Part shown: in pieces, positions 4,391 through 50,383 of the stretch
Layout of the letters: each line of letters opens with the position of its first letter
How positions within the stretch are numbered: position 1 is the first letter of the stretch
Made by a program: the position numbers and the translations under genes
Assembly (NCBI GenBank): GCA_044448685.1
Contig: JBIOHC010000001.1
Location: 29,941 to 93,940 of the forward strand
Direction of reading: 5' to 3'
Source: Bacteroidia bacterium
GTDB lineage: Bacteria > Bacteroidota > Bacteroidia > Palsa-965
DNA: 64,000 nt
Notes under the pieces: model-generated
What the model was told of the DNA's origin: nothing
The model's input: the letters and a program-made list of their open reading frames with translations, nothing else
The model's database searches: none

Positions 4391-4408
4391 GGTAAAAAGT
4401 TGCTGTGG

Positions 4409-7932: not shown

Positions 7933-7940
7933 CGGTGATT

Positions 7941-8913: not shown

Positions 8914-8989
8914 TTAGTTTCATATCCTTTTTTACTTTATGTTATGGTGTCCTATTTTTGTCAGTGGGTAAGGAACCCATCCGATCATG

Positions 8990-9180
8990 AATCGAATGGA
9001 ACCCACTAACCTGCCTCCATTTCCCTTCGCTCCCTGCCTGCCGTCGCGCAGGCCTGTGTTACGGCAGGCAGGCGTTTCCCCTCCTTCGCTACTGCTCCTG
9101 CCTCCGTTATCACTTCGGCAAGCAAGTCGGAGGGCAAGTCCGCTCTGATTTTCCCAGCATTCGGAGGATGGAGAGGGTGA
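8990..9180. repeat. GC-rich palindromic segment ending in copy 1 (9142–9175) of a 34-bp direct repeat
   Basis: Perfect 12-bp inverted repeat cctgcctgccgt…acggcaggcagg. Recurring cctgcct motifs. Ends with gctctgattttcccagcattcggaggatggagag. Confidence 0.75.
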
Positions 9181-9186
9181 GGAAGG

Positions 9187-9678: not shown

Positions 9679-9683
9679 GATTA

Positions 9684-9717
9684 GCTCTGATTTTCCCAGC
9701 ATTCGGAGGATGGAGAG
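9684..9717. repeat. Copy 2 of the 34-bp direct repeat (identical to 9142–9175), with ~15 nt of further degenerate similarity beyond it
   Basis: gctctgattttcccagcattcggaggatggagag is identical in both copies. The extension ggagag[c/g][t/g]tg[g/a]gg[g/a]aag is partly conserved. Confidence 0.8.
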
Positions 9718-9739
9718 CTTGGGGGAAGATGGAATCGCT

Positions 9740-10228
9740 TTATTGAACCTTAACCTTAAAATATACCTCGTTTGAAAGCTTGATTTGTTTGTTTGAAATA
9801 AGAGTAATATAGCAAGGGTCAACTAACTCTTTCGGATTTGGCTCAGGAATCTCTTTGACTTTGGTACTTTTAATTTCAAATAAGTTTAATGAAATGCCGC
9901 CATCCGTTAACTCAATTTTCCCTTCTCTGATTACCCTTGACGTAAAAGTGAAATACATTTTATCTTCAGCCAGACGGTACTTCCCCTTTACTTGTATGAT
10001 GTCCCGAAGGTCATCGGACATACTGGATAGATTCAGAACGAACGTGTTGTTATCATAAAATTCGAAGTTCTGTGCAAGCCCGCTACCAACGAGTTCATTG
10101 TCGCGCTGCCAAACACCAACCAAATCAGATTTTGACAAACAACAAGAATCTTTCTTGGCTTGACCAAATAAGATAAAGTTGGAAAGGCAGAGAGATAGCA
10201 GAAGTGCGTATGAAAATTTAATATTCAT
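9740..10228 (-). CDS. Secreted/periplasmic 162-aa protein (putative cognate immunity protein for the adjacent RHS toxin)
   Basis: Signal peptide MNIKFSYALLLSLCLSNFILFGQA. Lies immediately downstream of the RHS toxin gene in the canonical immunity position. Confidence 0.6.
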   Translation of the reverse strand: MNIKFSYALLLSLCLSNFILFGQAKKDSCCLSKSDLVGVWQRDNELVGSGLAQNFEFYDNNTFVLNLSSMSDDLRDIIQVKGKYRLAEDKMYFTFTSRVIREGKIELTDGGISLNLFEIKSTKVKEIPEPNPKELVDPCYITLISNKQIKLSNEVYFKVKVQ

Positions 10229-27400: not shown

Positions 27401-28156
27401 AGCCTGATAAGAGAGTATAACCGTATGATTGAAGAGCTTGCACGAAGTGCCGATCTGCTTGCACGTTCTGAACGGGAAAGTGCCTGGAGAGAAATGGCCA
27501 AACAGGTGGCCCATGAAATTAAGAATCCGCTGACGCCCATGAAGCTTAGCATTCAGCATATGCAAAGGCTCATTGATGACAAAAGTCCGGATCTGGAAAA
27601 GAAGGTCGGGCGATTGGCTCAGACTCTCATCGAGCAGATAGACACACTGTCTTCCATAGCCAGCGAATTTTCAAGCTTTGCAAAAATGCCAAAAGCTGTC
27701 AGTGAAGCCATTGATCTTAAACAGCTAATCCCTTCTTCTCTCGACCTGTTCAAGGAAACACCCGGGGTGGATATACATTTTGTCTGCGAAGATACCAGAC
27801 CGGATTTTAGGGTGTATGCCGACAAAGAACAATTGCTCCGTATGCTCAATAACCTCCTGAAAAATGCGGTGCAGGCTATACCCGAAGACAGGCACGGCGT
27901 CATCTCAGTAGAGCTGAGCTATGCGGAAGAAATGCAGGTTATAGCCATAAAAGATAACGGTACGGGTATACAGGAAGACCTGATGGATAAAATATTTGTG
28001 CCCAACTTTACGACCAAAAGCACGGGTATGGGCCTTGGCCTGGCAATGGTAAAAAGTATCGTGGAGACCTTCGGAGGACAGATACGTTTCGAAACGAAGA
28101 AGGACAAGGGAAGTATATTCTACATATATCTTCCTGAACTAAAAACAAAAGCTTAA
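24401..28156 (+). CDS. Large multi-TM sensor histidine kinase (~1250 aa) without receiver domain
   Basis: N-terminal extracytoplasmic region, then many TM helices, a HAMP-like linker, H-box HEIKNPLTPMK, and HATPase_c (…GTGIQEDLMDKIF…GMGLGLAMVKSIVE…). The true start may lie downstream of 24401. Confidence 0.85.
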   Translation: MFEARKIRIQNAGFLHVRKLFHNRLFLCSLSILFLVSGQLLHTMHRENPQTDARKLESVLHSKEKRINEELDLLRSKAGKLNYNQLFTQRPDYYNSFFKKDGLVLLIYENDTLKFWSDNSVAVENYMKEVCLDDHMAKLKNGWFEVVKKPLSSSRTAVGLIHIKNEYPYQNHYLNNDFQHDFKVSSHVKLQINENAALPSVRNTKGEYLFSMHPLTSPLQDDFPIPWFQVVLNGLGIVLLILFIRELMRGFRDKIGEGGGAVLFVTVLILLRLLSIVLHLPDAFYQSTLFGPKYYGDAGSFWLSSLGDLLLNTLLLFYITFYISRHWKVTLNKLSGKKAVLIVCSFLLFFSVFWLSWFTDNLFKGLIHNSEINFSVNELFSLNFYSLLGVLIVGLLLFSFFLLTDLVLSFVNSAGLPVPARLILFIGSALFFALLCHLTGVLDPVAFCWSFAVIVIVAAVKRQSAGSYSFSGSILLVMILSMYSVHTFLKYTGIKEKDNRKVYAEKLSAEQDPIAEHLYPEVEPQLLTDSVLLHDLLSPRTYEAFQKRLTQRYFGGYWEKYDIRITYFDSACNALIKPNRQSPDNITYFDELITKSGQETYTPNLYYLQNLSGKISYLARIPIYLNSRDAIPSHLILVFESKFISEEVGFPELLLDRDLGITQQIANYSYAKYRNGKLVNQYGKYHYPIISAAYDGYREPFSFLVADGYNHLIHRPDASTLILISKPDSGLVGDVTTFSYLFAFYSLQLLLLLFLKQLVFSGLSISALTFKARIQAILVFIVLISLALFGFGTVFYIRAQYEAKNTENITEKLQSVLAEVDTRFEVEELDRNYREYSSFILKKLSNIFFTDINLYDANGNLYVSSRPEVFDEGLVSKKMNPEAYYQMGLRKKSEFVHDENIGNLNYLSAYVPFKNRNGKEIAFLNLPYFAKQSELEKEISTFLVALINIYVLLFAMSIIVAVIISNYLTRPLKLIQDKMSKVKLGEANELIEWNQLDEIGSLIREYNRMIEELARSADLLARSERESAWREMAKQVAHEIKNPLTPMKLSIQHMQRLIDDKSPDLEKKVGRLAQTLIEQIDTLSSIASEFSSFAKMPKAVSEAIDLKQLIPSSLDLFKETPGVDIHFVCEDTRPDFRVYADKEQLLRMLNNLLKNAVQAIPEDRHGVISVELSYAEEMQVIAIKDNGTGIQEDLMDKIFVPNFTTKSTGMGLGLAMVKSIVETFGGQIRFETKKDKGSIFYIYLPELKTKA

Positions 28157-37853: not shown

Positions 37854-40829
37854 ATGAAAAATACTTACCGCACATTATTCGCATTGTCTTTCCTTGTTAT
37901 GCTACCTGAATTTTCCGTTGCTCAGGAATTCTGGGGTATGACTTCCAGCGGAGGAGCTTATGGACTTGGAACAATTTTCAAAGCTGATTCCGGCTGTACA
38001 AATGCAGTAGCGAAATATTCTTTTGTATCCAATATTCCGGGGTCGAATCCATCGGGCGACCTCGTTCAGGCAAGCAACGGGAAATTTTATGGCATGACGA
38101 CAAACGGAGGGACGAATGGAACCGGTGTGCTATTTGAATATGATGCAACCGGGGGTATTTACACACGCAAATTCGAATTCATAGGAACAACGACAGGAGC
38201 CAATCCTGTCGGTTCGCTTATTCAGGCCGGGAATGGAAAACTGTACGGGATGACCAGCAGCGGAGGTACCGGCAACATCGGAGTACTGTTTTCCTTCGAT
38301 CCCGTCTCTTCTGCATTTGTAAAACTGATTGACTTTTACGGAGCAAACGGTTCAATGCCCACAGGTTCCCTGATGCAGGCAAGTACAGGTAAGTTATATG
38401 GTCTTACAAGTGCAGGCGGAGGCAATGGAAAAGGAATTCTGTTCTCCTATGATCCCGTAACCACCACCTTCATGGATAAATTTGATTTTTCAGGAACAGC
38501 GGATGGAGCAGGCCCTCAGGGATCGCTTATTCAAGCTATGAACGGTAAATTATATGGTCTGACAACCTATGGAGGAATAAAAAATGCCGGGGCCCTTTTT
38601 CAATTCGATACCCTATCAGGAGCACTTTCCAAACTGGCAGATTTCGACACTATTCCCACAGGATGTAATCCAACCGGCTCCCTTGTTGAGATCAGCCATG
38701 GTAAATTATTCGGTACAGCTTCCTATGGGGGAGTAAATACGAATGGTACAATTTTTTCATATGTCATCAGTACGGGCATTTTTAGCAAAGTAGCAGACTT
38801 TAATGTTGCAACACTTGGCGGAACTCCTAACGGATCAATGGTTCTTGCACCCAATGGAAAGTTTTACGGACTGACTTTTGCGGGAGGCACAAACGGGATA
38901 GGTACTCTCTTTCAGCTTGATACCACGACTCTGACACTTGTTAATAAAGTAAATCTCTCCGGCTCAGCAAACGGATCAAATCCTAAAGGTTCTCCTATTC
39001 TGGCAACGGATGGTAAGTTATACGGAATGGATTACAACGGAGGCTTGAACAACAGCGGTGTATTGTTCCAATATGACCCGGGAACAAGTACGTATACTGA
39101 TAAGGTGGATTTTGAAACAGCAGTCAATGGAGCCGTACCTACAGGCAACCTGTATATGGCAACGAATGGAAAATTTTATGGAATGACGACTGCAGGGGGT
39201 ACAAACGGAACGGGTGCCTTATTCGAATTTGATACCGCCACTTCGGTGTTAACCTCCAAGGTGCAGTTCACCGGAGCAAATGGAACAAGCCCGAATGGAT
39301 CCCTTATGCAGGCAAGCAACGGAAAATTATACGGGGTAACAACCGGGGGAGGTACTTCGAATTCAGGTATTTTGTTCGAATACGATCCTGCTTCATCGAC
39401 CTATACTAAAAAGTATGATTTTGACGGTGCAGGTAACGGAGGGGCTCCTTTTTGCACCTTGTTACAGGCAAGCGATGGTTTGATTTATGGAGTAGCTACA
39501 ACCGGGGGAGCTAACAGTGCCGGTGTCCTCTATTCCTTTGACCCTGCAAGTTCAACCTATACCAAGACATTCGACTTTAACACATCGATAGACGGCGGGT
39601 CCCCGTATGGAGCACTCATACAGACAAGCCCTGGACGGCTGTTCGGGTTGACAGCCGGAGGAGGAAATAACGGAACGGGTATACTATATGAATATTCAAT
39701 TTCCTCTGCCGCCTGCACAAAAAGAGTTGATTTTGTTGGAACTACGAATGGTACCAATCCATATGGTGCTCTGGTTTCGATGCCAGGAGGTAAATTATAC
39801 GGAACTACATCAGGAGGAGGCGCTAATGGACTGGGCGTTATTTTCGAATACGATACAGCTTCCGGAACATTGACAAAAGTATTGCCGCTCACTGCACAGC
39901 CAAACGGAAATTTTCCACAAGGATCCATAATCGTTGCCGGGAATCAATTATTTCTGACGACCGTGAATGGGGGGGTGAACAATATTGGAGCACTTGTAGA
40001 ATATGACCCGGTTTCGAACACAGCTGTAAATAAATCGGATTTCGTTCGTACATCGACAGGTGCTGATCCCTACGGTGATCTGGTATATTTCTGTAATCCT
40101 GTTGCCGTAAGCGCCAATTCGGGTGATACAGCCAAATGTCAGGGCAACACAAGTATTTTATGGGTTACTACTACCGGCAAGTATGTAACCTATCAATGGT
40201 ATAAGAATGGAGTTGCAATAGGCGGAGCCACAGGTTCCAAATATATTATTCCAAACATGTCAGCCTCAGACAGTGCATTCTATTACTGTAATGTGCAGAA
40301 TGCATGTGGAAATCTGAATTCATTGCAGGTTCATATTACGCTCAATGCACAGCCTTCAGTTCCCACCATAACACAAAATGGTGCCGTATTAACTTCCAGT
40401 TCGGTAACAGGAAATCAATGGTACCTGAATGGGGTTATTATTACAGGTGCAACGGCTCAGAATTATACGCCGTCAGCGAACGGAAACTATACTGTGACCG
40501 TTACCAATAGCAGTGGATGTTCCGCAACTTCCGCCCCCTTTAATATGACCAATACCGGAATAACGGAAAAAGCCGGAGAGTTGATTATGCAGGTGTTTCC
40601 GAATCCGGCAACGACAACGCTCAATCTTAGTTTCCAGGTGGAGCAAGAAACACAAACAGAATTATCCGTGATGGATCTGCTGGGCAATACGGTTCTGAAT
40701 AGCCGTGCTTATCTTACAAAATCTGCCAATAAAACAGTTTTGGATATCAGTATTCTTAACCCCGGAATGTACGTACTCAAAGTGAGCAGTATTTCTGGTC
40801 AGGGGTTGATAAAGTTCTTCAAACAGTAG
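37854..40829 (+). CDS. Secreted protein with ~13 tandem GloVer-type ~48-aa repeats, Ig-like domains and T9SS C-terminal sorting domain
   Basis: Signal peptide. Repeats of the form NPxGSLxQAxNGKLYGMTxxGGxNGxGVLFEYDxxxxxxTKxxDF. C-terminal FPNPATTTLNLSF…YVLKVSSISGQGLIKFFKQ (T9SS CTD). Confidence 0.8.
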   Translation: MKNTYRTLFALSFLVMLPEFSVAQEFWGMTSSGGAYGLGTIFKADSGCTNAVAKYSFVSNIPGSNPSGDLVQASNGKFYGMTTNGGTNGTGVLFEYDATGGIYTRKFEFIGTTTGANPVGSLIQAGNGKLYGMTSSGGTGNIGVLFSFDPVSSAFVKLIDFYGANGSMPTGSLMQASTGKLYGLTSAGGGNGKGILFSYDPVTTTFMDKFDFSGTADGAGPQGSLIQAMNGKLYGLTTYGGIKNAGALFQFDTLSGALSKLADFDTIPTGCNPTGSLVEISHGKLFGTASYGGVNTNGTIFSYVISTGIFSKVADFNVATLGGTPNGSMVLAPNGKFYGLTFAGGTNGIGTLFQLDTTTLTLVNKVNLSGSANGSNPKGSPILATDGKLYGMDYNGGLNNSGVLFQYDPGTSTYTDKVDFETAVNGAVPTGNLYMATNGKFYGMTTAGGTNGTGALFEFDTATSVLTSKVQFTGANGTSPNGSLMQASNGKLYGVTTGGGTSNSGILFEYDPASSTYTKKYDFDGAGNGGAPFCTLLQASDGLIYGVATTGGANSAGVLYSFDPASSTYTKTFDFNTSIDGGSPYGALIQTSPGRLFGLTAGGGNNGTGILYEYSISSAACTKRVDFVGTTNGTNPYGALVSMPGGKLYGTTSGGGANGLGVIFEYDTASGTLTKVLPLTAQPNGNFPQGSIIVAGNQLFLTTVNGGVNNIGALVEYDPVSNTAVNKSDFVRTSTGADPYGDLVYFCNPVAVSANSGDTAKCQGNTSILWVTTTGKYVTYQWYKNGVAIGGATGSKYIIPNMSASDSAFYYCNVQNACGNLNSLQVHITLNAQPSVPTITQNGAVLTSSSVTGNQWYLNGVIITGATAQNYTPSANGNYTVTVTNSSGCSATSAPFNMTNTGITEKAGELIMQVFPNPATTTLNLSFQVEQETQTELSVMDLLGNTVLNSRAYLTKSANKTVLDISILNPGMYVLKVSSISGQGLIKFFKQ

Positions 40830-40830
40830 G

Positions 40831-41292
40831 CTATGACAAAAGTTTTTGACGCAGCATAAAGTCAAGCTGTTTGTTGGCTTCCAGGAGCATCTCGGTAAGA
40901 TGCTTATTGCTTTCCCTCAGGGAAAAAAGTTCGTAGGCCTGTTCTATGGAAACCCTCAGTTCATGCTCATCCCAGGGTTTACTGATATAGCGGTAAACCT
41001 GACCCTTGTTGATGGCAGAAATAACCGCCTGAATATCAGCATAACCGGTGATCAGTATCCTGACCGGATCAGGATATTCAGTCAGGATGGATTCCAGAAA
41101 CTCCACACCGGTTGTACCGGGCATGCGTTGATCGGTCAGAATGACATGAAAAGTATGTTCCTTCATTAATGTTCTGCCCCGCTCTGCTGATGAAGCCGTT
41201 TGAATATCAAAATCCCTTCTGAACAAAGCTTTGAAAGCAACCAAATTGTTGGTTTCATCGTCTACATACAAAATCTTGATTTTTTTTTCCAT
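40831..41292 (-). CDS. Stand-alone response-regulator receiver domain (CheY-like)
   Basis: ILYVDDE…LTDQRMPGTTGVEFL…ISKPW (conserved D, D, K positions). 153 aa. No output domain. Confidence 0.85.
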   Translation of the reverse strand: MEKKIKILYVDDETNNLVAFKALFRRDFDIQTASSAERGRTLMKEHTFHVILTDQRMPGTTGVEFLESILTEYPDPVRILITGYADIQAVISAINKGQVYRYISKPWDEHELRVSIEQAYELFSLRESNKHLTEMLLEANKQLDFMLRQKLLS

Positions 41293-41339
41293 GACCGTCT
41301 GGTTTAATGTATTATCACGCTCTGCATTTATTTTCTATA

Positions 41340-43484
41340 TCAATCGTTGCTCCGGAAAATAGGTAAACTTATGATAAATTCACTTCCTGTTCCGGGCTCC
41401 GAATACACTTTTATTTTACCGTGATGTTTTTCTATAATTGAATGTGTAATGGATAAGCCCAGACCGATTCCCTGTCCAACATCCTTTGTTGAAAAGAAAG
41501 GTTCGAAAATGCGGGGAAGAATTTCCGCCTTTATACCTATACCATTATCCTGAATGCTTATGTACACGTTTTTTTCATCCGAAGAAGAATGAATAGTTAT
41601 AAGCCCTTCTGCGGGGCTTCCCTTCTCTGAAATAGCATGGATAGCATTATTCAGAATATTCATAAATACCTGATTGATTTTACCGGGATAGCATTCAACC
41701 GGAGGAAGGGATCCATACTCCTTCACTATTCTTATCTTATCCTTTACCAATGTATTCAGAAGAATGAGTGTGGCATTCAATCCTTCGTGGATGTCAGCTG
41801 TTTTGAGACTGTCTTCATCCAGACGTGAAAAAACCTTGAGCCCTTTAATGATTTCAGAAGTACGGGATGCGCCATCATCAATACCATGAAGCAGCTCATC
41901 AATTTCCTGCATGGAATAATCCATATCCAGCTCTTTTTTCAGCTTCTGAGCAGCGGCAATGGATTCGTCTGCACGGGGACCGCTTTCGATCTGTTCATAT
42001 TGTTTAAACAGCTGCCTGATTTCATCCAGGGTTCTTTTCAGTGATTTAATATTGGATTTGACAAAATTAATGGGATTGTTTATTTCATGCGCAATGCCGG
42101 CAGTAAGCTGACCGAGTGAAGCCATTTTTTCTGCATCCACCAGCTGGCTTTGGGCTTCTTTTAAGTTGGAGAATGTAAGGCTCAGTTCCTTATTCGTTGT
42201 TTCAAGCTCTGCAGTCCGTTCGTGAACTTTGGTTTCCAGAATCAGGTTCTGCTCCCTGACAATCCTTGCATTTTCCCTTAATGCATCCAATGCGCGAACC
42301 TGGCTTTCTTCCTTTTCTTTTTTAAGAATATTAATGCGATCTGCCAAACCAAAAGAAATCAGAAGAACCTCTAATGCAGAACCGGCCTGCATGGTATAAC
42401 GGGTAAAAGTATTATAGGGCAGTACTTCAAAATCTTTCAGAACAAAGATGCAGATGCCGGTAAGAAATATAGACCAGGCGATTAAAAAGAAACGTGCCGG
42501 GCGATACCCTTTTCTTGTAATGATGAGTGCTTCGGCAAAGATATAGATGGAAACCAGGATAGCGGTGACTTCTATACTCAGGTAGCTGGCCTGATACAGT
42601 TTAAATAAGGAAAGTATGTAACCGATGAGGTATGCGAAATATAGGAGATAGGTAAATTTGTATAGACGGGGAGTATAATGTTTTGTTTGAATAAAAGAGT
42701 GAAGAAAAAACAATCCGGTAACACCAACAAGAGCAGGATAAAAGAATTCAAGATTTATGGCAAGTGCCGGATAGTTCGGGTAAAGAAACTGAAAAGGATA
42801 CCCCTGCAACCCGGTTTGTGTCAGAAGTACACTGGCTATATAAACAACATAGTACAGATAGCTTTTATCCCGGACTGAAAAATAGATAAAGAGGTTATAC
42901 AAAAGCATAACCAGCATGAGTCCCACATAAATTCCCGAAAAAAGATTTTTACCATTAATATGTTCAAACAGGGATTGTTCTGACACTAAGAGGAAGGGCA
43001 GCTGAATCTGATCTGAACTGTGAATCCTTATGAAATAAGTAACCGGGTTATTCACAGGGGCATGCAAGGTGAAAATATAATCCGGAACTTTGTATTTGCG
43101 AAAAGAGAAAGGCTTGAATTCACCTTGTTTGTCTTCCTCGAACCGGCCCTGATCGTTAGGGGAAAACACAGACACTTCATCCAAGGAGGGCTGTTCCAGC
43201 ATCAGCATCAGATGATTTTCCTTGCTGGTATTCAGGACTGTAAATTTTACCCAGAATACGGAATTAGAAAGACCCATATTGGGGACAAGTTGGGTGCTGG
43301 TCCTGAATTTGTCCGACAGGATCACATTTTCAAAAGTAAGTGTGCCGGAGGCATCTTCCAGAATCTCAAGATTAGCTCCTATCCCCTTATTTGTTTCATG
43401 ACCGGTATACAGAATTGGACCGGAAGCATGAGCCTGTATAAAAAAGCCAAATAAGAAGAAAAGTATAAAAGAGAGCTTGTTCAT
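41340..43484 (-). CDS. 7TMR-DISM-type sensor histidine kinase (extracellular DISMED2-like domain + 7TM + HisKA + HATPase_c)
   Basis: Signal peptide. ~170-aa extracellular domain. Seven TM helices. H-box GIAHEINNPINF. G-boxes (…DNGIGIKAEILPRIFEPFFSTK…GIGLGLSITHSII…). Confidence 0.85.
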   Translation of the reverse strand: MNKLSFILFFLFGFFIQAHASGPILYTGHETNKGIGANLEILEDASGTLTFENVILSDKFRTSTQLVPNMGLSNSVFWVKFTVLNTSKENHLMLMLEQPSLDEVSVFSPNDQGRFEEDKQGEFKPFSFRKYKVPDYIFTLHAPVNNPVTYFIRIHSSDQIQLPFLLVSEQSLFEHINGKNLFSGIYVGLMLVMLLYNLFIYFSVRDKSYLYYVVYIASVLLTQTGLQGYPFQFLYPNYPALAINLEFFYPALVGVTGLFFLHSFIQTKHYTPRLYKFTYLLYFAYLIGYILSLFKLYQASYLSIEVTAILVSIYIFAEALIITRKGYRPARFFLIAWSIFLTGICIFVLKDFEVLPYNTFTRYTMQAGSALEVLLISFGLADRINILKKEKEESQVRALDALRENARIVREQNLILETKVHERTAELETTNKELSLTFSNLKEAQSQLVDAEKMASLGQLTAGIAHEINNPINFVKSNIKSLKRTLDEIRQLFKQYEQIESGPRADESIAAAQKLKKELDMDYSMQEIDELLHGIDDGASRTSEIIKGLKVFSRLDEDSLKTADIHEGLNATLILLNTLVKDKIRIVKEYGSLPPVECYPGKINQVFMNILNNAIHAISEKGSPAEGLITIHSSSDEKNVYISIQDNGIGIKAEILPRIFEPFFSTKDVGQGIGLGLSITHSIIEKHHGKIKVYSEPGTGSEFIISLPIFRSND

Positions 43485-44224
43485 ATGCGGACAAAAGGGG
43501 AATATACTAAAGAAAGAGCTTGTGCGTTTTTCAATTCATTAACGTATATAACGATCAGGTCATAGTCTACCTCAAAGGTGCCCTTGGGGCCCGTTTCAAT
43601 AAGGATAGTCCTTGGATTGGCTCTTAGCTCCAACATCCGTCGCCTGTCATACTCTGTACTGCTGGCCAACGTTTCGGCATTCATGATACCAACTACTTTG
43701 GCCAGATATTCTTCAGTAGGATAGATAAAATCTCCATCCTTTCCGAGTGTTTTGTCAATTACAAAACCGACACGGGTGAACATAGGCAGGGAATATTCTG
43801 CACAAATCCCCAGCAAGGTTCGGAAGTGAAGCTGGTTAATAATGGATATGGCAGCCCGCACCAGCAGGATACTGATTCCCCGTCCGGCCACTTCCCTGGC
43901 ATTCCAGAGTCCGCAAAGTTCACCGGTACCTCCATCCTGACGGTGTTTGAGTACAAGATCATATACCTGGGAGTCCATCTTGCCAACTGCGGTTTCAACC
44001 GGCAATGGATGCACTCCATCGGCAACCTGGACACGAATTCCTCCAACTAGTTTACCATCCAGCTCGGCTACTACGCCATAAGTGAATGGATTTTCTGCCC
44101 AGTCTTTGGAATAGGAGGTGACATTGAGGATACCATAATCTTCCAGCACCCTTCGATGGCCTTCTATGTATTCCAGGCATAAGCCCTGCTCCCATACGGG
44201 GTAAAAAGATCTGATTTTCAGCAT
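43481..44224 (-). CDS. GNAT-fold protein resembling LuxI/FeeM-type N-acyl amino-acid (autoinducer-like) synthases, with ~70-aa C-terminal extension
   Basis: 247 aa. β-α GNAT-like core (…YGVVAELDGKLVGGIRVQV…GELCGLWNAREVAGRGISILLVRAAISI…). 4-bp overlap with the downstream HK (ATGA). Family assignment from sequence pattern only. Confidence 0.45.
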   Translation of the reverse strand: MLKIRSFYPVWEQGLCLEYIEGHRRVLEDYGILNVTSYSKDWAENPFTYGVVAELDGKLVGGIRVQVADGVHPLPVETAVGKMDSQVYDLVLKHRQDGGTGELCGLWNAREVAGRGISILLVRAAISIINQLHFRTLLGICAEYSLPMFTRVGFVIDKTLGKDGDFIYPTEEYLAKVVGIMNAETLASSTEYDRRRMLELRANPRTILIETGPKGTFEVDYDLIVIYVNELKNAQALSLVYSPFVRI

Positions 44225-44227
44225 GGA

Positions 44228-46546
44228 TCATTTTAGATACAAGACCTCTGTAAGCGGCCTTCTCAGGGCCTTTGTCTCCATTTCATTTGCAATATGCAAC
44301 TTGATAAGGAATACATGTTCTGTGTTTCCTTCCAGTGCAAACAACCGGTTAAAACGGGCATGCAGTTGGGTAAGTTCTTGTTCCATATGCGGACTGAATC
44401 TTTTCGCCTGACCATGAACAAGGCGACTGAAGAAATAGGTACAGGCAGAAACAGGGTGAACAGAAATACCAAGCAGGTTCGCCTGAATCCAGGCTCGCTG
44501 CAAAGCTCTTCCTCCATTGAAAAAATTCACTGAACTGTATGCCGGCATTGTGACCAGAGCCAGGGCAGAAGCTGTCTGAACAGCCTGCCGTCCCATTTTC
44601 TCAAATGCTGTACCCCCCTTCCAGGCATTCAGGTGGCGTATTACATCCGGCGTTACGGCCATACGGAACCCTGCCAGTTCAGAAGGGGTCAGCTCCACAG
44701 TAGCCAGATCAATCCCGTCCTGGGTGCGTTCTGCATCTTCTTTTGTCCAGCGCATTTCATGGACGAATTCCTGATGGTCTTCTTCATTCATAAGCCGAAT
44801 CCGGTCAACACAGCCAACAATATCCTCCGCTTCTTTCAAGTCGGCATTCGAATCCAGAAATTTCAGATCTGCTCCGGGAATACTCTTTGTTGCAGTTAGC
44901 AGTTGAGACAATCTGTCAGAATCAATCGTCCGGCGTATACCGTATTTTCGATTCGTACCACGGAGAAAAATGCCTTTGCTCAGAGAGTCGCAGGGATGCG
45001 GTTCAAGATGAATATCTTTTGGTAAGGTGGCGGTCTTATAAAAGCGGAAAACGGCAATCAGTTTGCTGTCATCACCTGTCTTGTTCAAGCAGGAAACTTC
45101 CAGATCAAGTTCATGTGCTTTCAGAATAAGATTTTCAGTGGTAGCGCCAAGACCAAGGAAGGAAAAAATATGCTGAAAATCGGAGGACCGTATACGGTCA
45201 TGGAACAGGCAGAGTTTTTTTTCTGTATAGATCCATTTCCAGGGTTGGTTATTTCCGGCTGAAGGAGCAGCAACCGCAGCTGTAATCAGTTCAACGACCT
45301 GTGCTTCACTCAGCTCAAGTTGCGATTCATCCGGCAGTATTGCCTGCAATCGGATAGTTTCAAGCATTTCCTCCCGGGTAAGCTCTGTTTCCTTTGTTGT
45401 ATCTTCAGGAACATGAGGGAGCTGGGCAGGAGCCTTGTCACAAATAAGCTCTTCCAGGTCAACAAAATATCTTCCGGACTCATGAAACTGGTCCAGGGCT
45501 ATCCTTCTGCAAACGTCGGCAGCCAGCGCTCCTCCCAGAACGACAGCGGAGCCAAGCTGTGGCCAGGTGGTCAGTGTCTGACCGATTTCAATCATGGACG
45601 CTTTAAGCTTGGAGGATATTGTTTCTGAACCAAGAATCGGAAGGATATATGGCACTTTTTCTTCGTTGCTGAGGTTCTTAATCTTGCTGATGTCGAGGTG
45701 ATCGATCATGCCATGTAATAAGGGACGATCCGGTTCCAGATCAAACCTTTCCACATCCAGTGTCCCCCTGTCATTCATATCCATCACAACCGGAATCCGG
45801 AGTGCCCTGGCCTTTTGCCGGCATAATATTTTAATATCCAGCCCATCGCACTCTTCCACCAGCATATCCAGTTTTCCTCCTTTCAGAAAAAAATCATCCA
45901 TATTTTCCTCAGTGAGTCCATCGGTATAGCAAACCGTTTTCAGGTAGGGATCCATTTCAGCTATTTCCCGTGCCACGGCAATGGCCTTGCTTATCCCCAG
46001 GTTATAAAGCCCGGTTTGAATCCTGTTCAGGTTGGTAAGCTCCAGTGTATCATAATCGGCCAGGCGTATTTCACCGAAGCTGCGCTCCATAGCCATTGCC
46101 ATGGAAATTGTTTTTCCTACAGAGAGTCCTATTACGCCGACTCTCAGTTGCCCAAGCCGGTCCCGTTCTTCAACAGTAATCTTGTACTGGTTGCGGTTTG
46201 TCCTCACCTCTATAAATTCACTTTCGTCAAGAATATGCAGCAGACGGTATGACCAGGGGTAATATATCCAGACACCATAGTGAGCCGGATCAGAATTTCC
46301 CAGATGCTTATCAACCATCTTATCCAATTGTTCCTGATTCAGTTTCAAGCTCGGGTTCCTGGATTTGAGAAGTTCCCTGAGCTGGGATCTCAACTCATCA
46401 CTTACCTGAATAAAAGGAGAATCCTGAAGAAGCTGATCCATACGCTCCTGTTCACCGGGAGTTTTCAGATTAAAAATACTGGGATGGTAAACGGAATGGT
46501 CCCTTCTTGTCTTATCTGTATGAGAAGCCAGTACTGTTTCAGACAT
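44228..46546 (-). CDS. ThiF/MoeB (E1-like) – nitroreductase-superfamily fusion protein (MoeY/Rv1355c-like architecture)
   Basis: Rossmann GxGxxG (VGVIGLSVGKTISMAMA) and E1-like core (~residues 130–380). C-terminal ~330-aa nitroreductase/Acg-like FMN domain with the PSAGNNQPW signature. 772 aa. Confidence 0.8.
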   Translation of the reverse strand: MSETVLASHTDKTRRDHSVYHPSIFNLKTPGEQERMDQLLQDSPFIQVSDELRSQLRELLKSRNPSLKLNQEQLDKMVDKHLGNSDPAHYGVWIYYPWSYRLLHILDESEFIEVRTNRNQYKITVEERDRLGQLRVGVIGLSVGKTISMAMAMERSFGEIRLADYDTLELTNLNRIQTGLYNLGISKAIAVAREIAEMDPYLKTVCYTDGLTEENMDDFFLKGGKLDMLVEECDGLDIKILCRQKARALRIPVVMDMNDRGTLDVERFDLEPDRPLLHGMIDHLDISKIKNLSNEEKVPYILPILGSETISSKLKASMIEIGQTLTTWPQLGSAVVLGGALAADVCRRIALDQFHESGRYFVDLEELICDKAPAQLPHVPEDTTKETELTREEMLETIRLQAILPDESQLELSEAQVVELITAAVAAPSAGNNQPWKWIYTEKKLCLFHDRIRSSDFQHIFSFLGLGATTENLILKAHELDLEVSCLNKTGDDSKLIAVFRFYKTATLPKDIHLEPHPCDSLSKGIFLRGTNRKYGIRRTIDSDRLSQLLTATKSIPGADLKFLDSNADLKEAEDIVGCVDRIRLMNEEDHQEFVHEMRWTKEDAERTQDGIDLATVELTPSELAGFRMAVTPDVIRHLNAWKGGTAFEKMGRQAVQTASALALVTMPAYSSVNFFNGGRALQRAWIQANLLGISVHPVSACTYFFSRLVHGQAKRFSPHMEQELTQLHARFNRLFALEGNTEHVFLIKLHIANEMETKALRRPLTEVLYLK

Positions 46547-46619
46547 AGGAAAAGTATTAGGTGAATTCCACTAAATTATGGTCCTTCATGCCCTAAGTAG
46601 CATGAATAGTATATTGCCT

Positions 46620-47705
46620 TTAAGCCTGGTTTGGAATGACGATCTTAAATTTCGTTCCCTTTCCGATCACAGAGCTTACTTCAATTTCGCCTCCTATTTT
46701 TTCAACTGCTTCTTTAGCAATATAAAGCCCCAGGCCGGAGCCGGGCTTTTCTTGTGTAGCACGATAAAACATGTTGAATATTTTATCAAGATGCTCCGAT
46801 TCAATACCAATGCCGGAGTCCTCTATGCAAAGAGTTGCATTTTTTTGAGCTACTTTAAGATCAATGGAGACAAATTGATCGTGCCGGTTTTTATTCTGGT
46901 ACTTGATAGCGTTTAGTAATATATTGTTGAGGATAACCTGGAAACGGAATTCATCCGTGCTAAAAGCTTCCTGTTGGTCAATGCAGTACTTAAGCTGGAT
47001 ATTACTCTTCCCCTGGAAATAGTCAAAACTGGCCCAGGTTTCCCGAATCATTTTATCGAAGTCCAGAACAGAAGGCCTGATTTCATATTTGACATTCTGA
47101 TAGTAGTTAATGATATTACCGACGAATACATCCAGGCGATCAATACTTTTATCAATCATAGCCAGGTAATCCTGGGGTGTGGTATTGGGTTGGGTTTTAG
47201 CAAAATTGATGATCCCTTTGATGGACATCAGGGGAGCCCGGAGGTCATGGGAGGCGCTGTAAACAAATTTTTCAAGCTCGTTATTTGTTTTTTGAAGCTG
47301 AAGATTGCGTTCCTTAAGCAGCCTGCGGGTACAAGCCATATCAAATGCATTTCTCAGAATAACACGCAAGTTTTGTTCATCCCAGGGCTTGTTCAGGTAA
47401 CAGTATATTTTGCCTTTGTTAATGGCATCAATCACATCCTGCATATCTGTATAACCAGTAATGAGTATTTTAATCAGATCAGGATAGCTCGAGGTGATCG
47501 ATTCCAGAAAATGAACCCCGGTAATTCCGGGCATCCTTTGGTCAGTCAGAATAATATCCAATTCTTCCCTTTTCAGGATTTCCAGCCCTTCTTCAGCCGA
47601 TTTTCCCGTAAAAACAGTTGCATCTCTGCGAAAAGCAGCCCTGAAAGCCGTTAACTGACCCGGGTCGTCATCCACATACAAAATTCGGGGGGTCTGATCA
47701 AACAT
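46620..47705 (-). CDS. Hybrid REC–HisKA–HATPase_c signalling protein (receiver domain N-terminal to the kinase core; no TM)
   Basis: Receiver ILYVDDD…LTDQRMPGITGVHFL…LNKPW. H-box YSASHDLRAPL. HATPase_c (…DSGIGIESEHLDKIFNMFYR…GSGLGLYIAKEAVE…). The receiver is ~55% identical to the one at 40831–41292. Confidence 0.85.
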   Translation of the reverse strand: MFDQTPRILYVDDDPGQLTAFRAAFRRDATVFTGKSAEEGLEILKREELDIILTDQRMPGITGVHFLESITSSYPDLIKILITGYTDMQDVIDAINKGKIYCYLNKPWDEQNLRVILRNAFDMACTRRLLKERNLQLQKTNNELEKFVYSASHDLRAPLMSIKGIINFAKTQPNTTPQDYLAMIDKSIDRLDVFVGNIINYYQNVKYEIRPSVLDFDKMIRETWASFDYFQGKSNIQLKYCIDQQEAFSTDEFRFQVILNNILLNAIKYQNKNRHDQFVSIDLKVAQKNATLCIEDSGIGIESEHLDKIFNMFYRATQEKPGSGLGLYIAKEAVEKIGGEIEVSSVIGKGTKFKIVIPNQA

Positions 47706-47827
47706 ACGAATGTTCTGAGCTAGCTGGAATAAATCAAAGGTATTCTATTTGTACGGTATGAAATTTTATTTGGATGTACAGAGTCTTACAAAAAGAGCTA
47801 AAATCTTACATATGCAAGGTACATCGA

Positions 47828-49108
47828 TTATTTGGCATTGAAAAGGGCGAAGCTTTCTTTTTCAAGCCTTTCCCTATGATCCGGATGTGCAATATCAGTG
47901 AGCATTCTGGCCCGGTCTTTGCGGTTACGTCCGTATAAATTTGCAATACCATACTCTGTTACAACATAATGTACATGTGCCCGGGTGGTTACCACCCCTG
48001 CACCGGAATGAAGCATGGGAACAATCCTTGATTCTCCCTTCGATGTTGTAGCATGCAGGGCTATGATCGGCTTTCCGCCTTCCGAAAGAGAAGCCCCACG
48101 GATAAAATCCATTTGCCCGCCGACACCTGAATACATTACCGGACCAATACTGTCAGCACAAACCTGACCACTCAGATCAATTTCTATGGCACTGTTAATG
48201 GCAACCACCTTGGGATTCTGTCTGATAATATGGGTATCATTTACATAGGCGGCATCCTCCATTTCAATAAGAGGATTGTCATCTACAAATTCATACAGTC
48301 TCCTGCTCCCCAGAATAAAGCCGGCTACTATTTTGCCGGGATGTTTTTTCTTAAAAGCACCGGTAATGACACCTTTTTCAACAAGGTCAATAACCCCGTC
48401 TGAGAACATTTCACTGTGGATGCCAAGGTGTCTGTGATTCTTAAGCTCTCCGAGTACAGCATTGGGAATTTTACCTATTCCCATCTGCAGGGTTGACCCA
48501 TCTTCAATGAGCCCGGCAACATACCTGGCAATCTTTCTATCCCTTTCATCCGGTTTGCCACTGTGAATTTCAGGCAATGGATGGTTTACTTCAACCATAT
48601 GTGTGAAACGGGACCTGTGAATCAGTCCCGCCCCGTGGGTTCTTGGCATCTGAGGGTTAACCTGTGCGATAAGGCAGGAGGCATTCTCAATTGCAGAAAG
48701 TGCCAGGTCAACGGAAATGCCCAGGCTACAGTAACCATGTTTATCCGGAGGTGAAACATGGAGCAGGGCTATATCAAGAGGGATAATTTTTTTTCTGAAT
48801 AAGGCAGGAACTTCACTCAGGAAAACCGGAATGTAATCAGCCATACCTGTTATAAGCGCCTTCCTGGTATTGGTACCAATAAAAAAGCAATTTGTTTTGA
48901 AATGTCCCCTTAAAGACTCATCAATATAAGGAGCATCCCCTTCTGTATGCATCTGATATATCTGAATATCAGAAAGGCTTTTACCTTTCTCCACCATTGC
49001 CATAATAAGTTCGGCCGGGGCAGCAGCAGCAGATTGTATAAAAACACGGGAACCTGATTTAAGCTCTGAAAGAGCTTCATGTGCTGTAGAATAACCGTTT
49101 TGATTCAT
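47828..49108 (-). CDS. Acetyl-CoA hydrolase/transferase-family enzyme (e.g. succinyl-CoA:acetate or 4-hydroxybutyrate CoA-transferase type)
   Basis: 426 aa. Family-typical N-terminus MNQNGYSTAHEALSELKSGSRVFI and conserved GIG…E region. Confidence 0.8.
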   Translation of the reverse strand: MNQNGYSTAHEALSELKSGSRVFIQSAAAAPAELIMAMVEKGKSLSDIQIYQMHTEGDAPYIDESLRGHFKTNCFFIGTNTRKALITGMADYIPVFLSEVPALFRKKIIPLDIALLHVSPPDKHGYCSLGISVDLALSAIENASCLIAQVNPQMPRTHGAGLIHRSRFTHMVEVNHPLPEIHSGKPDERDRKIARYVAGLIEDGSTLQMGIGKIPNAVLGELKNHRHLGIHSEMFSDGVIDLVEKGVITGAFKKKHPGKIVAGFILGSRRLYEFVDDNPLIEMEDAAYVNDTHIIRQNPKVVAINSAIEIDLSGQVCADSIGPVMYSGVGGQMDFIRGASLSEGGKPIIALHATTSKGESRIVPMLHSGAGVVTTRAHVHYVVTEYGIANLYGRNRKDRARMLTDIAHPDHRERLEKESFALFNAK

Positions 49109-49159
49109 TTTGTATGGATGGCGTGGAAAAAGGATTCTTACGGCATTCTGCCTGTTGGT

Positions 49160-49519
49160 TCAGTGAATAGAAGCAAGCTCCGGATTGTCAATTTCCCCAA
49201 GGGTGAACTTATTACCGGCAGGTATTTCCTTCCAGTTTCCGTCTACCTTATGCAGGAGACATACATTGAGCCCAAAAACATCCCGGAAGTGATTGATGAG
49301 TTCAGCAGGAGTCATTCCCGGAGTAACCGTGATAGTCCCTTTGTTGTGAATGCTCCGGCACTGACCCACTGTTTTACTGCCGCCCACCATATGGTCGGGG
49401 CCTGCAGCACCGGCATGAGCCGATTTGGCAAAAAAAGCCAGAAGTAAGTGAGGAAAAAGCGCTGCAAAAGCTTTTTGAATTCCAAATACCTTGCGGTGAT
49501 CGTTGATAGAGATTTTCAT
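49160..49519 (-). CDS. Hypothetical 119-aa protein
   Basis: ORF in an operon-like arrangement between the Usp and CoA-transferase genes. No recognisable motif. Confidence 0.4.
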   Translation of the reverse strand: MKISINDHRKVFGIQKAFAALFPHLLLAFFAKSAHAGAAGPDHMVGGSKTVGQCRSIHNKGTITVTPGMTPAELINHFRDVFGLNVCLLHKVDGNWKEIPAGNKFTLGEIDNPELASIH

Positions 49520-49528: not shown

Positions 49529-50383
49529 TTATTCGTGAATAGACAATAAGGGGATATGCGTATGGAAGGCCATTGATCGTGTATTGCTTTTGTGAAACAG
49601 ATTTGACAACAGGTTACGTACATGTGGTACCATGACCAGGAGGTTGGCTTTATTTTTCTTTATAAACAACTGGAGCTCCGGCTCCATTTGGCCGGAAACA
49701 GAGAAGTAATAAGAAGGATGAAATGAAGCCAGTTCACCCCTTGTTTTAAAGGGGACCGCCTCTGCCTTGCCGGCCTCATACCCGGCTTCGGATTTCTGAA
49801 TATTCAGCACAAGCAGGCTTGATTTAAATACATGGACAAGAGGGCCCAATACCCTGGTGAATTTGCCGGGAAGAAATTTTTCTTCATCACAGGCAAATGC
49901 AATAACACGGATCGGGCGGAATCTGGCCTTTTCAGGCACAATCAGGACAGGGCATTTTGTTTTTTTCAACAATGAAGTTGTATTGCTTCCCATAAGGATA
50001 TTCGTACGCTTTCCTGCACCTGTAATTCCCATCACCACCAGATCGGCATGTGAACGTTTTATTTCAGCACAGATCTCCTCCCGTATTATAAAACCCATTC
50101 TTGATATCGCTGTGACGGGAACCTTACCCATAGTCTGTTTTTCCAATGCCTGACGCAGCTTTTCGATTTGAAATTCAGAACGCATTTCCATCTGTTCTGC
50201 AATCACTGTGATCGGTGAGTCGGGATCGGGCAGAGGAATCGAATAGATGTGAAGCAGGGTGATTCCGGCTTTCAGGTGTTCGGCCAGTTTAACGGCATAA
50301 GTCAGGGCATTCATAGAGACGACCGAATAATCGACAGGAACCAGTATCATTTGAATTCGGCTGTTTGAAAAGGACTTTGCCAT
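49529..50383 (-). CDS. Tandem universal stress protein (UspA-domain ×2)
   Basis: Two ~140-aa Usp-like halves (…ILVPVDYS…; …RVIAFACDEE…LVMG…). Confidence 0.8.
   Translation of the reverse strand: MAKSFSNSRIQMILVPVDYSVVSMNALTYAVKLAEHLKAGITLLHIYSIPLPDPDSPITVIAEQMEMRSEFQIEKLRQALEKQTMGKVPVTAISRMGFIIREEICAEIKRSHADLVVMGITGAGKRTNILMGSNTTSLLKKTKCPVLIVPEKARFRPIRVIAFACDEEKFLPGKFTRVLGPLVHVFKSSLLVLNIQKSEAGYEAGKAEAVPFKTRGELASFHPSYYFSVSGQMEPELQLFIKKNKANLLVMVPHVRNLLSNLFHKSNTRSMAFHTHIPLLSIHE

Follow-up and report, generated by a model that had tools for sequence, protein, structure and literature searches.

Oxazolone-type biosynthesis genes linked to a 7TMR-DISM sensor kinase in Bacteroidota: a candidate make-and-sense cassette

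The window, which is the whole 64,000-nucleotide stretch of DNA that was analysed, carries five minus-strand genes that encode two sensor kinases, an enzyme fusion, a GNAT-fold protein and a single-domain receiver (Table 1). A preliminary description of this DNA had reported a tight co-directional run, and all five open reading frames were found exactly at the coordinates that it gave, with domain assignments that hold in Pfam. From the first gene to the last, the junctions measure 73 nt, 3 nt, a 4-nt overlap and 47 nt. The overlap is an ATGA at 43481–43484, where the start codon of the 7TMR-DISM kinase gene lies on the stop codon of the acyltransferase gene; a second 4-bp overlap claimed previously proved to be the 3-nt gap at which the fusion gene adjoins the GNAT gene. 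A TAccTTTG sequence 30–37 nt 5′ of the first operon gene is tentatively taken to be a −7 element of the Bacteroidota promoter type; a generic sigma-70 scan scored no better than shuffled sequence.

Table 1 Features of the minus-strand operon and its upstream flank.
Feature	Position	Strand	Basis
REC-HisKA-HATPase hybrid kinase, 361 aa	46620..47705	-	Pfam
ThiF–nitroreductase fusion, 772 aa	44228..46546	-	Pfam + NCBIfam
N-acyl amino acid synthase-like GNAT, putative TrzA/TyzA/OxzA counterpart, 247 aa	43481..44224	-	Pfam
7TMR-DISM sensor histidine kinase, 714 aa	41340..43484	-	Pfam
Single-domain response regulator REC_a, 153 aa	40831..41292	-	Pfam
Possible Bacteroidota-type −7 promoter element (TAccTTTG), tentative	47726..47742	-	Sequence inspection

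The fusion protein consists of a ThiF domain (Pfam, E = 6e-14) and a nitroreductase domain (E = 2e-6). It passes the NCBIfam model NF005901, the 'Rv1355c family', with a score of 807.5 bits (E = 1e-242) where the cutoff is 476, and the match is near full length, extending over profile positions 4–718 of 722. In Mycobacterium tuberculosis, Rv1355c is the oxazolone synthetase TrzS. The nitroreductase half additionally matches the NCBIfam Acg family (E = 7e-28), in line with the Acg-type reading proposed for it earlier, and the fusion shares 32–36% identity with actinobacterial Rv1355c-family proteins over 86–95% of its length. Conserved motifs include GLSVG (140–144), ADYD (163–166), NLNR (172–175) and EECD with D234 in the first part of the protein, and APSxGNxQPW (427–436), RxTNR (529–533) and DRIR with R582 and R584 in the second. 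D234 (EECDG) is invariant among the window fusion, four actinobacterial Rv1355c-family proteins and one Streptomyces ThiF and lines up with the corresponding Asp in TcdA and in E1. Judged by motif, D234 is the probable equivalent of the adenylation residue D217 in the TrzS of M. smegmatis, where the D217A substitution abolishes cyclisation (PMC12856293). The oxidase half contains the invariant arginines R529, R533, R582 and R584, and position 697 is Q/H, with His also found in M. thermoresistibile and Rhodococcus. The FMN-site residues tested in TrzS are R540 and Q651 (PMC12856293); residue spacing, with approximate numbering, suggests that R540 corresponds to one of the DRIR arginines.

The 247-residue GNAT protein gave a weak generic match to PF00583 in Pfam (E = 1e-5) and no match to any NCBIfam model, so that neither database matched it to a curated synthase family. 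In line with the lack of an NCBIfam match, the protein is no housekeeping acetyltransferase, which supports the preliminary description. Among solved structures, its fold comes nearest to FeeM and then to AHL synthases; for TyzA, too, the nearest structural neighbours are FeeM and an AHL synthase (PMC10404671). Sequence identity to FeeM and LuxI-type AHL synthases is 10–14%, and the GNAT protein differs from them in an extra C-terminal region of ~70 residues that comprises a β-hairpin and helix. Pairwise BLASTP of the GNAT protein against the TrzA family reached only E = 0.09. Profile comparison by hhalign aligned the Bacteroidota family with the actinobacterial family that occupies the TrzA position at 94.6% probability (E = 6.5e-8, 168 columns), and a search of 547 ORFs with the Bacteroidota HMM ranked only three, all of them adjacent to Rv1355c genes (E = 4e-5, 0.019 and 0.023). 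By these profile and fold comparisons, the protein is a remote TrzA homologue and a predicted N-acyl amino acid synthase-like enzyme.

Although the preliminary description found no known pathway for this set of genes, a ThiF–nitroreductase protein together with such an acyltransferase constitutes the OxzAB/TrzAS pathway (PMC12856293, PMC10404671, bioRxiv 10.1101/2020.06.11.147165). This oxazolone pathway was discovered in 2020–21, and TrzA–TrzS (Rv1356c–Rv1355c) carry out N-acyl tryptazolone biosynthesis in M. tuberculosis, M. smegmatis and Rhodococcus jostii (PMC12856293). Experimental chemistry is available for TrzA and TrzS (PMC12856293), OxzAB (bioRxiv 10.1101/2020.06.11.147165) and TyzACB (PMC10404671), and cyclisation followed by desaturation was shown experimentally for TrzS (PMC12856293). 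In Actinomycetota, acyl-tryptophans build up in the supernatant and tryptazolones inside the cells (PMC12856293).

The 714-residue kinase contains 7TMR-DISMED2 (PF07696, residues 37–167, E = 3.6e-29), 7TMR-DISM_7TM (PF07695, residues 180–383, E = 2.2e-51), HisKA and HATPase (602–709) domains, preceded by a signal-peptide-like segment (1–21) and with an H-box, AGIAHEINNP, at 462–471. Its DISMED2 domain followed by a 7TM module assigns it to the 7TMR-DISM receptor family; the matches of a PDB sequence search were confined to its kinase core. The hybrid kinase carries the receiver residues D12–D14, D55 and K106 and the H-box SASHDLRAPL with H153, and its LuxQ match in NCBIfam is a generic match to the catalytic core. 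REC_a consists of a receiver and a C-terminal helix without an output domain, and aligns with the hybrid kinase receiver at 51% identity over 139 aa (E = 2e-49). The receivers at the two ends of the operon are paralogues, as had been described, at 51% rather than the ~55% identity first estimated.

Conservation of the arrangement was assessed by scanning a genome collection, in which 405 stretches code for relatives of the acyltransferase; of these, the best 80 loci went into the comparison. These best 80 of 405 span Sphingobacteriia, Chitinophagia, Cytophagia and Flavobacteriia, and in 76 of them the 7TMR-DISM kinase gene lies directly 3′ of the acyltransferase gene, with a median gap of −4 nt; at least three of the remaining four (L035, L073 and L071) stop at a contig end. 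A ThiF(-FDO) gene is present in 74 of the best 80, nearly always upstream of the acyltransferase gene, and the two are adjacent in 72 related loci with a median gap of 4 nt. Hybrid kinase orthologues occur in 55/80, mostly directly after the 7TMR-DISM kinase, the gene having relocated to the operon head in the window's own clade. REC_a orthologues (61/80) are mostly divergent and upstream of the ThiF-FDO gene. Of six representatives from more distant parts of the family, four also have the full cassette, and one representative (P0348) encodes a ThiF–acyltransferase fusion protein. In odd cases the acyltransferase is fused to TIR or LRR domains. Cultured carriers include Pedobacter steynii DSM 19110, P. 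duraquae DSM 19034, Pedobacter sp. BAL39 and Nemorincola caseinilytica JCM 32105.

Cassette members are retained despite rearrangement between clades, whereas the genes outside vary by lineage (rpoN in Pedobacter, dnaJ–grpE in another group and GloVer here). The recurring gene set, the tight median gaps and this turnover of outside genes indicate that the arrangement is not due to chance, and the conserved co-occurrence that the preliminary description had proposed to look for is thus strongly positive in the best 80 of 405 loci. Its suggested T9SS/GloVer link is not supported, since the GloVer neighbour is kept only in the closest relatives (L001 and L002). Neither a DNA-binding regulator in any of the best 80 of 405 loci nor a conserved exporter or DNA-binding output was found as part of the cassette. 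The enzyme complement varies as well: approximately seven loci have ThiF and lack the oxidase, and L075 has two acyltransferase genes and no ThiF, so the final sensed molecule cannot everywhere be an unsaturated oxazolone.

We propose, with about even confidence, that these genes form a cassette that both makes and senses an N-acyl-amino-acid oxazolone. The biosynthetic half is well supported by the family and motif matches, and the idea in the preliminary description of a locus for making and sensing a small molecule fits the evidence; sensing of the product by the 7TMR-DISM kinase we infer from gene linkage. The linkage of oxazolone enzymes to a sensor kinase and receivers is the new element, and we found no paper that describes it. 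In the proposed mechanism, the ThiF half of the fusion would adenylate a carboxylate and close the oxazolone ring, and the flavin-dependent oxidase half would desaturate the ring with O2. The co-translated kinase could detect either the lipophilic, hydrolysis-prone product or its precursor, the secreted N-acyl amino acid, by way of either the 7TM bundle in the membrane or the DISMED2 domain in the periplasm, and would phosphorylate both paralogous receivers, namely REC_a and that of the hybrid kinase. In most relatives, the hybrid kinase may relay to a second receiver type, REC_b, which is absent from the window. Given that the cassette lacks a DNA-binding regulator, output would be post-translational or would pass through an unlinked partner.

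A kinase inside a biosynthetic operon could equally regulate that operon. It would then sense an outside cue (envelope stress, antibiotics or a nutrient) and control oxazolone production via the receivers, with the oxazolone acting as an effector (an antimicrobial, membrane lipid or stress protectant) rather than as the kinase ligand. We consider this unlikely overall, though with an appreciable chance of being correct, as cluster-situated two-component regulators are generally common in natural-product loci. In Proteobacteria, antibiotics at sub-inhibitory levels induce the making of oxazolones, related N-acyl tyrosines are antimicrobial or biofilm-shaping (bioRxiv 10.1101/2020.06.11.147165; PMC12856293), and two family members (L092 and L095) have no linked kinase at all, which indicates that the enzymes can work without one. 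However, the absence of a DNA-binding regulator from the cassette in all of the best 80 of 405 loci does not favour such control, the kinase gene is downstream of the enzyme genes and translationally coupled to them, which is not the placement of an upstream regulator, and the actinobacterial counterpart, too, is in one operon with the gene for a signalling protein that has a sensor domain.

A reactive intermediate, either the ThiF adenylate or the oxazolone (azlactone) itself, might instead transfer its N-acyl-aminoacyl group to a protein, lipid or envelope component tied to the kinase pathway, in place of a free diffusible signal. Loci with ThiF and no oxidase would yield a saturated azlactone, reactive and short-lived, and such a saturated cyclised intermediate has been described (PMC12856293); activating a carboxylate for transfer is the usual role of ThiF-like enzymes (PMC12596934), and the fusions to TIR or LRR domains would suit this role. 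Nevertheless, the oxazolone leaves the characterised homologues as a free product (PMC12856293, PMC10404671) and the cassette has no conserved acceptor gene, which makes a donor function improbable. That the enzyme genes and the kinase genes are neighbours through shared ancestry alone, without functional coupling, is very improbable: the best 80 of 405 loci do all belong to one phylum, with many from Pedobacter, but the cassette is kept in all four classes although the flanking genes change, it has been rearranged internally without loss of members, and its gene junctions overlap.

If make-and-sense is the correct reading, environmental Bacteroidota (Pedobacter, Chitinophagaceae, Cytophagaceae and several Flavobacteriales) may carry a communication or autocrine system in which an oxazolone made by TrzAS-like enzymes is the cognate ligand of the 7TMR-DISM kinase, a proposal that we hold tentatively and at a little below an even chance. 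The physiological role of oxazolones is a 'major unresolved question' for the authors who described tryptazolones, and these authors speculated from the resemblance to AHLs that oxazolones are signals (PMC12856293). The kinase-tied cassette makes that speculation testable by specific experiments, offers a candidate ligand for the 7TMR-DISM receptors, a family in which few ligands are known, and represents a candidate cell–cell or autocrine system for Bacteroidota; if the proposal is true, it would provide the first physiological function for oxazolones. It would also be, to our knowledge, the first small-molecule ligand class paired with a 7TMR-DISM kinase via a dedicated synthase and the first conserved synthase–receptor pair described in Bacteroidota, for which we know of few dedicated synthase–receptor signalling systems. 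The actinobacterial GAF-GGDEF-EAL partner would then be an intracellular equivalent of the 7TMR-DISM kinase, and the parallel mycobacterial linkage to c-di-GMP enzymes points to a shared logic with relevance for M. tuberculosis.

Compared with TrzA–TrzS, the window fusion passes the same NCBIfam family model, the adjacent small acyltransferase is a remote TrzA homologue by profile, and sensor or signalling genes adjoin both systems. In M. thermoresistibile, trzA–trzS is followed by an overlapping GAF-GGDEF-EAL gene, in Nocardia and on Rhodococcus plasmids the pair lies amid GGDEF and EAL genes, and the same neighbourhood pattern was noted for rv1354c and rv1357c of M. tuberculosis (PMC12856293). 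The differences are that identity is only 32–36% for the fusion and ~21% at profile level for the acyltransferase, that the gene order is reversed, with the fusion first and the acyltransferase second in the window, and that the phylum is another and a 7TMR-DISM histidine kinase cascade takes the place of the c-di-GMP enzymes. OxzA–OxzB of Pseudoalteromonas rubra (tyrazolones and phenazolones) and TyzACB of M. tuberculosis combine an N-acyltransferase, a ThiF cyclase and an oxidase of the nitroreductase superfamily, the three activities that are also predicted for the window, although OxzB and TyzB/TyzC fall into similarity subclusters other than that of TrzS (PMC12856293); the literature examined reports no kinase linkage for either. 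The actinobacterial GAF-GGDEF-EAL linkage is an independent parallel to the kinase linkage.

Among signalling systems, RetS and LadS of Pseudomonas aeruginosa are 7TMR-DISM receptors in multi-kinase networks and similarly join a DISMED2 and 7TM sensor to a histidine kinase core. They are, however, hybrid or unorthodox kinases that act on GacS and are not known to be encoded with a metabolite synthase, and the known 7TMR-DISM signals, such as calcium for LadS, are not lipids. LuxM–LuxN, AinS–AinR, CqsA–CqsS and LqsA–LqsS–LqsR are cassettes of a synthase and a membrane sensor kinase in which, as here, the synthase gene adjoins that of a multi-pass membrane histidine kinase. By analogy, the window kinase would bind a lipophilic product in the membrane and start a phosphorelay via receivers, and LqsR, too, is not known to have a DNA-binding output domain. 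NCBIfam and Pfam scans found no homology to the LuxM, AinS or CqsA synthases or to the LuxN or CqsS sensor domains, and the Bacteroidota system differs in its predicted oxazolone or N-acyl amino acid chemistry and in its phylum. The relation to the autoinducer cassettes is thus one of analogy, not membership, and the gene arrangement typical of them is present: synthase and kinase are adjacent, co-oriented and co-conserved across four Bacteroidota classes.

The operon consists of five consecutive minus-strand ORFs whose boundaries agree exactly with those of the preliminary description. Gaps of 73 nt and 3 nt follow the first and second genes, the third and fourth share a 4-nt ATGA, and 47 nt precede the last gene. 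The tight packing noted there is borne out, with one 4-bp overlap (the ATGA) present and the second absent, and the flanking receivers are indeed paralogues, at 51% identity across 139 residues instead of the ~55% first estimated. All four signalling proteins retain their phospho-acceptor and H-box residues. No Rfam match was found in the entire window, and generic sigma-70 promoters and terminators at 40300-49400 were discarded because scan counts were no better than for shuffled sequence. In the rest of the 64-kb window no second biosynthetic copy, no second 7TMR-DISM sensor gene and no gene for REC_b, a second receiver type, was found; the histidine-kinase core of a large ORF outside the cassette is distant kin of the cassette kinases (26-32% identity).

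Coordinates of the operon genes, neighbouring features and related loci
Sequence	Coordinates	Strand	Feature	Source
Window	47705-46620	-	REC-HisKA-HATPase kinase (REC-kinase hybrid), 361 aa	Pfam
Window	46546-44228	-	ThiF + nitroreductase (FDO) fusion, 772 aa	Pfam
Window	44224-43481	-	Weak GNAT (NAS), 247 aa	Pfam
Window	43484-41340	-	Signal peptide, 7TMR-DISMED2, 7TMR-DISM 7TM, HisKA, HATPase; 714 aa	Pfam
Window	41292-40831	-	REC alone (REC_a), 153 aa	Pfam
Window	24401-28156	+	ORF outside the cassette, 1251 aa	
Window	27410-28147		C-terminal histidine-kinase core of the 1251-aa ORF	
Window	37854-40829	+	T9SS-sorted protein, 13 GloVer repeats, 991 aa	
Window	47828-49108	-	Acetyl-CoA hydrolase/transferase family protein	
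Window	49529-50383	-	Tandem Usp (universal stress protein) gene	
L017 (Chitinophagaceae MAG)	2358-5462		Three extra genes (243, 354, 306 aa) between ThiF-FDO and NAS	
L075	9995-11409		Tandem NAS pair	
L092 (Saprospiraceae MAG)	6001-7899		ThiF-NAS fusion (P0348)	
L095	4961-8053		Distant NAS, then FAD_binding_4 oxidase and R2K ATP-grasp protein	
L096	4953-6062		~370-aa ThiF upstream of NAS	
L082 (Streptomyces plasmid)	5914-7712		ThiF-only gene	
L088 (M. thermoresistibile)	5001-9869		trzA-trzS, then directly an overlapping GAF-GGDEF-EAL gene	
L090 (Nocardia species)	2532-9404		trzA-trzS amid GGDEF, EAL, GGDEF genes	

The ThiF-FDO fusion scored 807.5 bits against NCBIfam NF005901, 'Rv1355c family protein' (cutoff 476), covering nearly the whole profile, and across 86-95% of its length shares 32-36% identity with its Rv1355c-family counterparts in Rhodococcus, Mycolicibacterium and Nocardia, with every conserved motif of those proteins present. 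Rv1355c (TrzS) acts on the N-acyl-tryptophan that TrzA (Rv1356c) produces: an ATP-dependent ring closure and then an O2-dependent desaturation turn it into N-acyl tryptazolones (PMC12856293). Pseudoalteromonas rubra performs this chemistry with OxzAB (bioRxiv 10.1101/2020.06.11.147165) and M. tuberculosis also with TyzACB (PMC10404671), and an NAS, ThiF and nitroreductase triad has been proposed to lie behind the N-acyl dehydrotyrosines of Planctomycetota and Pseudomonadota (PMC12479983). The adenylation-motif aspartate D234 of the fusion is the counterpart, by motif, of TrzS D217, whose change to alanine abolishes cyclisation (PMC12856293). The invariant arginines are kept in the oxidase half, where conservation with respect to R540 and Q651 of M. 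smegmatis TrzS is at motif level only. A ThiF-only gene on Streptomyces/Kitasatospora plasmids (L082, H12-H15) is 43-45% identical to the window ThiF half, which makes it nearer than the mycobacterial fusions are.

Apart from a weak generic GNAT match, the window NAS belongs to no curated family in Pfam or NCBIfam. In a ranking of solved folds, LasI, RpaI, TofI and MesI stood behind its top match, FeeM; the structural neighbours of TyzA are likewise FeeM and an AHL synthase (PMC10404671). A profile of the Bacteroidota NAS picked just three of 547 ORFs in seven actinobacterial loci, all flanking Rv1355c-family genes. Profile-profile comparison of the Bacteroidota and actinobacterial NAS families gave a probability of 94.6% (E 6.5e-8, 168 columns); the latter family has members in Mycobacterium haemophilum and M. 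thermoresistibile, and in L088 and L085 its gene immediately precedes trzS. The relationship between the Bacteroidota NAS and the family in the TrzA position is remote but real, and because of it we treat the window pair as a predicted N-acyl amino acid to oxazolone pathway of the TrzAS/OxzAB type. The preliminary description could map the gene combination to no pathway; the NF005901 match and the remote TrzA homology now place the middle pair within a described one. Two other candidate comparators were set aside because neither resembles the window GNAT detectably: the 211-aa GNAT that the ThiF-only gene overlaps on the Streptomyces plasmid, and the product of the gene following an Rv1355c-family gene on a Mycolicibacterium plasmid; the former likewise has no detectable likeness to the Bacteroidota acyltransferase. 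On the same strand and 122 nt upstream of the operon lies a gene for a butyryl-CoA:acetate CoA-transferase-like protein (under the family cutoff), kept only in the closest relative, L001, at 81% identity. More speculatively, its product might supply short-chain acyl-CoA to the NAS. The Usp gene upstream of it is not kept in related loci.

With each species represented by one genome, a scan yielded 405 stretches encoding an NAS relative, and the window proteins were mapped onto the best 80, all ORFs of which were clustered. These 80 loci span Sphingobacteriia (Pedobacter), Chitinophagia (Chitinophagaceae, Flavipsychrobacter, Nemorincola), Cytophagia (Cytophagaceae, Cytophaga) and Flavobacteriia (Vicingaceae, Brumimicrobium). 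The NAS is present in all 80, and in 76 a 7TMR-DISM kinase gene lies immediately 3' of it; in at least three of the other four (L035, L073, L071) the contig ends early. The ThiF-FDO fusion occurs in 67/80 and a ThiF-only gene in 7/80, upstream of NAS in nearly all, while REC_a is found in 61, the REC-kinase hybrid in 55 (replaced by a REC-PAS-HisKA_3 kinase in 8) and REC_b in 48. No family beyond these six is common to more than 18 of the 80. The commonest layout is a divergent REC_a beside ThiF-FDO, NAS, 7TMR-DISM kinase, REC-kinase and REC_b; in the window, as in L001-L004, its closest relatives, the REC-kinase is at the head and REC_a at the end, and the window lacks REC_b. Across the 80 loci the median gap is 4 nt between ThiF and NAS and -4 nt between NAS and kinase (<=20 nt in 66/75), with medians of 12.5 nt and -11 nt at two further junctions.

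The flanks vary by lineage: Pedobacter has rpoN, another group dnaJ-grpE, and the window a T9SS GloVer protein. The cassette is under selection for linkage, since its members are kept despite rearrangement and flank turnover in four classes. A connection to T9SS/GloVer, suggested earlier, was abandoned as lineage-specific synteny, the GloVer protein that converges on the operon end being a neighbour in L001 and L002 only. Pedobacter has rpoN next to the cassette, and the receivers are similar to those of the NtrC type; a sigma-54 promoter was therefore sought upstream of ThiF-FDO, with zero matches in 68 loci. L017 carries additional genes within the cassette.

An exhaustive profile search extended the NAS family to 612 representatives (50% identity clusters). 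Of six distant representatives whose context was read, four have the full cassette (L091, L093, L094, L096). The ThiF-NAS fusion of L092 stands alone with no kinase nearby, and L095 lacks both ThiF-FDO and the cassette, so the enzymes can exist without the kinase. The oxidase and ATP-grasp protein of L095 may stand in, as non-homologous substitutes, for the oxidase and the carboxylate-activating enzyme. The kinase is kept in ThiF-only loci and in L075, which has no ThiF or ThiF-FDO and in which the two NAS genes are followed by 7TMR-DISM kinase, REC-kinase and REC_b in the usual order; L061 also has two NAS copies. NAS and kinase are the invariant core, and ring closure and desaturation look like variable tailoring steps. 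Flavobacteriales/UKL13-3-type loci (L007, L027, L036, L050, L056 and L079, in each at about position 8.8-10.0 kb, and also L096) encode a ~370-aa ThiF upstream of NAS that lacks an oxidase domain; an oxidase gene is likewise absent within 10 kb. They would be predicted to stop at the saturated oxazolone; in most of them the REC-PAS-HisKA_3 kinase replaces the REC-HisKA hybrid. Two further fusions with the NAS domain (P0338, P0303), TIR-NAS (570 aa) and LRR-NAS (662 aa), could be gene-calling artefacts on short contigs.

By homology, the NAS would synthesise an N-acyl amino acid in the cytoplasm, the ThiF half would adenylate and cyclise it, and the FDO half would desaturate the ring using O2. 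Gene linkage suggests that the product or its precursor would be the ligand of the co-translated 7TMR-DISM kinase. Actinomycetota build up the acyl-amino acid extracellularly and the oxazolone intracellularly (PMC12856293), and oxazolones at pH 8 are hydrolysed within hours (bioRxiv 10.1101/2020.06.11.147165). Sensing could occur in the membrane, through the 7TM bundle, or in the periplasm, through DISMED2; among 70 kinase orthologues the bundle is better conserved (mean column conservation 0.61 vs 0.45 in the DISMED2 half), which is only weakly informative on the site, and a PDB sequence search returned no solved relative of the DISMED2/7TM half of the protein. Given that its H-box is of the HEINNP type and that the two paralogous receivers are of the KPW type, the 7TMR-DISM kinase would phosphorylate both REC_a and the receiver of the hybrid, whose SHDLRAPL-type kinase would in turn serve REC_b where present. 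The pathway consumes ATP, acyl-CoA, an amino acid and O2, so what the signal reports could also be the metabolic state or oxygen supply of the cell, not cell density.

Comparable linkage is seen in Actinomycetota, where trzA-trzS adjoins cyclic-di-GMP-type GGDEF or EAL genes in M. thermoresistibile, in Nocardia and on Rhodococcus plasmids (L083, L084), in which a GGDEF gene abuts trzA. The TrzAS authors reported the same for rv1354c and rv1357c and considered it consistent with a signalling role (PMC12856293). Mycolicibacterium plasmid copies have P450 and TetR genes as neighbours and lack a trzA homologue. In two phyla, then, one biosynthetic pair is linked to sensor-signalling proteins of two unrelated kinds, which is the strongest circumstantial argument for the product as signal.

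Alternatively, the cluster may be under the control of the kinase cascade, which would respond to an outside cue, and the oxazolone would be an effector. This would fit antibiotic-induced production in Proteobacteria (bioRxiv 10.1101/2020.06.11.147165) as well as the kinase-less NAS family members, but it leaves unexplained both the absence of any transcription factor (no DNA-binding output gene belongs to the cassette in the best 80 of 405 loci) and the fact that the kinase gene lies downstream and overlaps its neighbour. The ThiF-only variants have suggested a role for the pathway as a reactive-acyl donor, although the cassette includes no conserved acceptor. Pure hitch-hiking of the enzyme pair and kinase genes is unlikely, given that the cassette keeps them while its gene order and flanks change.

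The enzymes add members to a known oxazolone pathway in a phylum for which the literature searched has no report of it, and the linkage of an oxazolone-type pair to kinases is the new part. Searches of open-access text returned nothing relevant tying oxazolones or N-acyl amino acid synthesis to 7TMR-DISM or histidine kinases in Bacteroidota, and the main texts of PMC12856293, PMC10404671 and bioRxiv 10.1101/2020.06.11.147165 mention neither kinases nor Bacteroidota clusters. No synthase or sensor domain of the cassette is homologous to those of LuxM/N, CqsA/S or LqsA/S/R, and its likeness to these systems, on paper only, would lie in the shared theme of a synthase paired with a sensor kinase.
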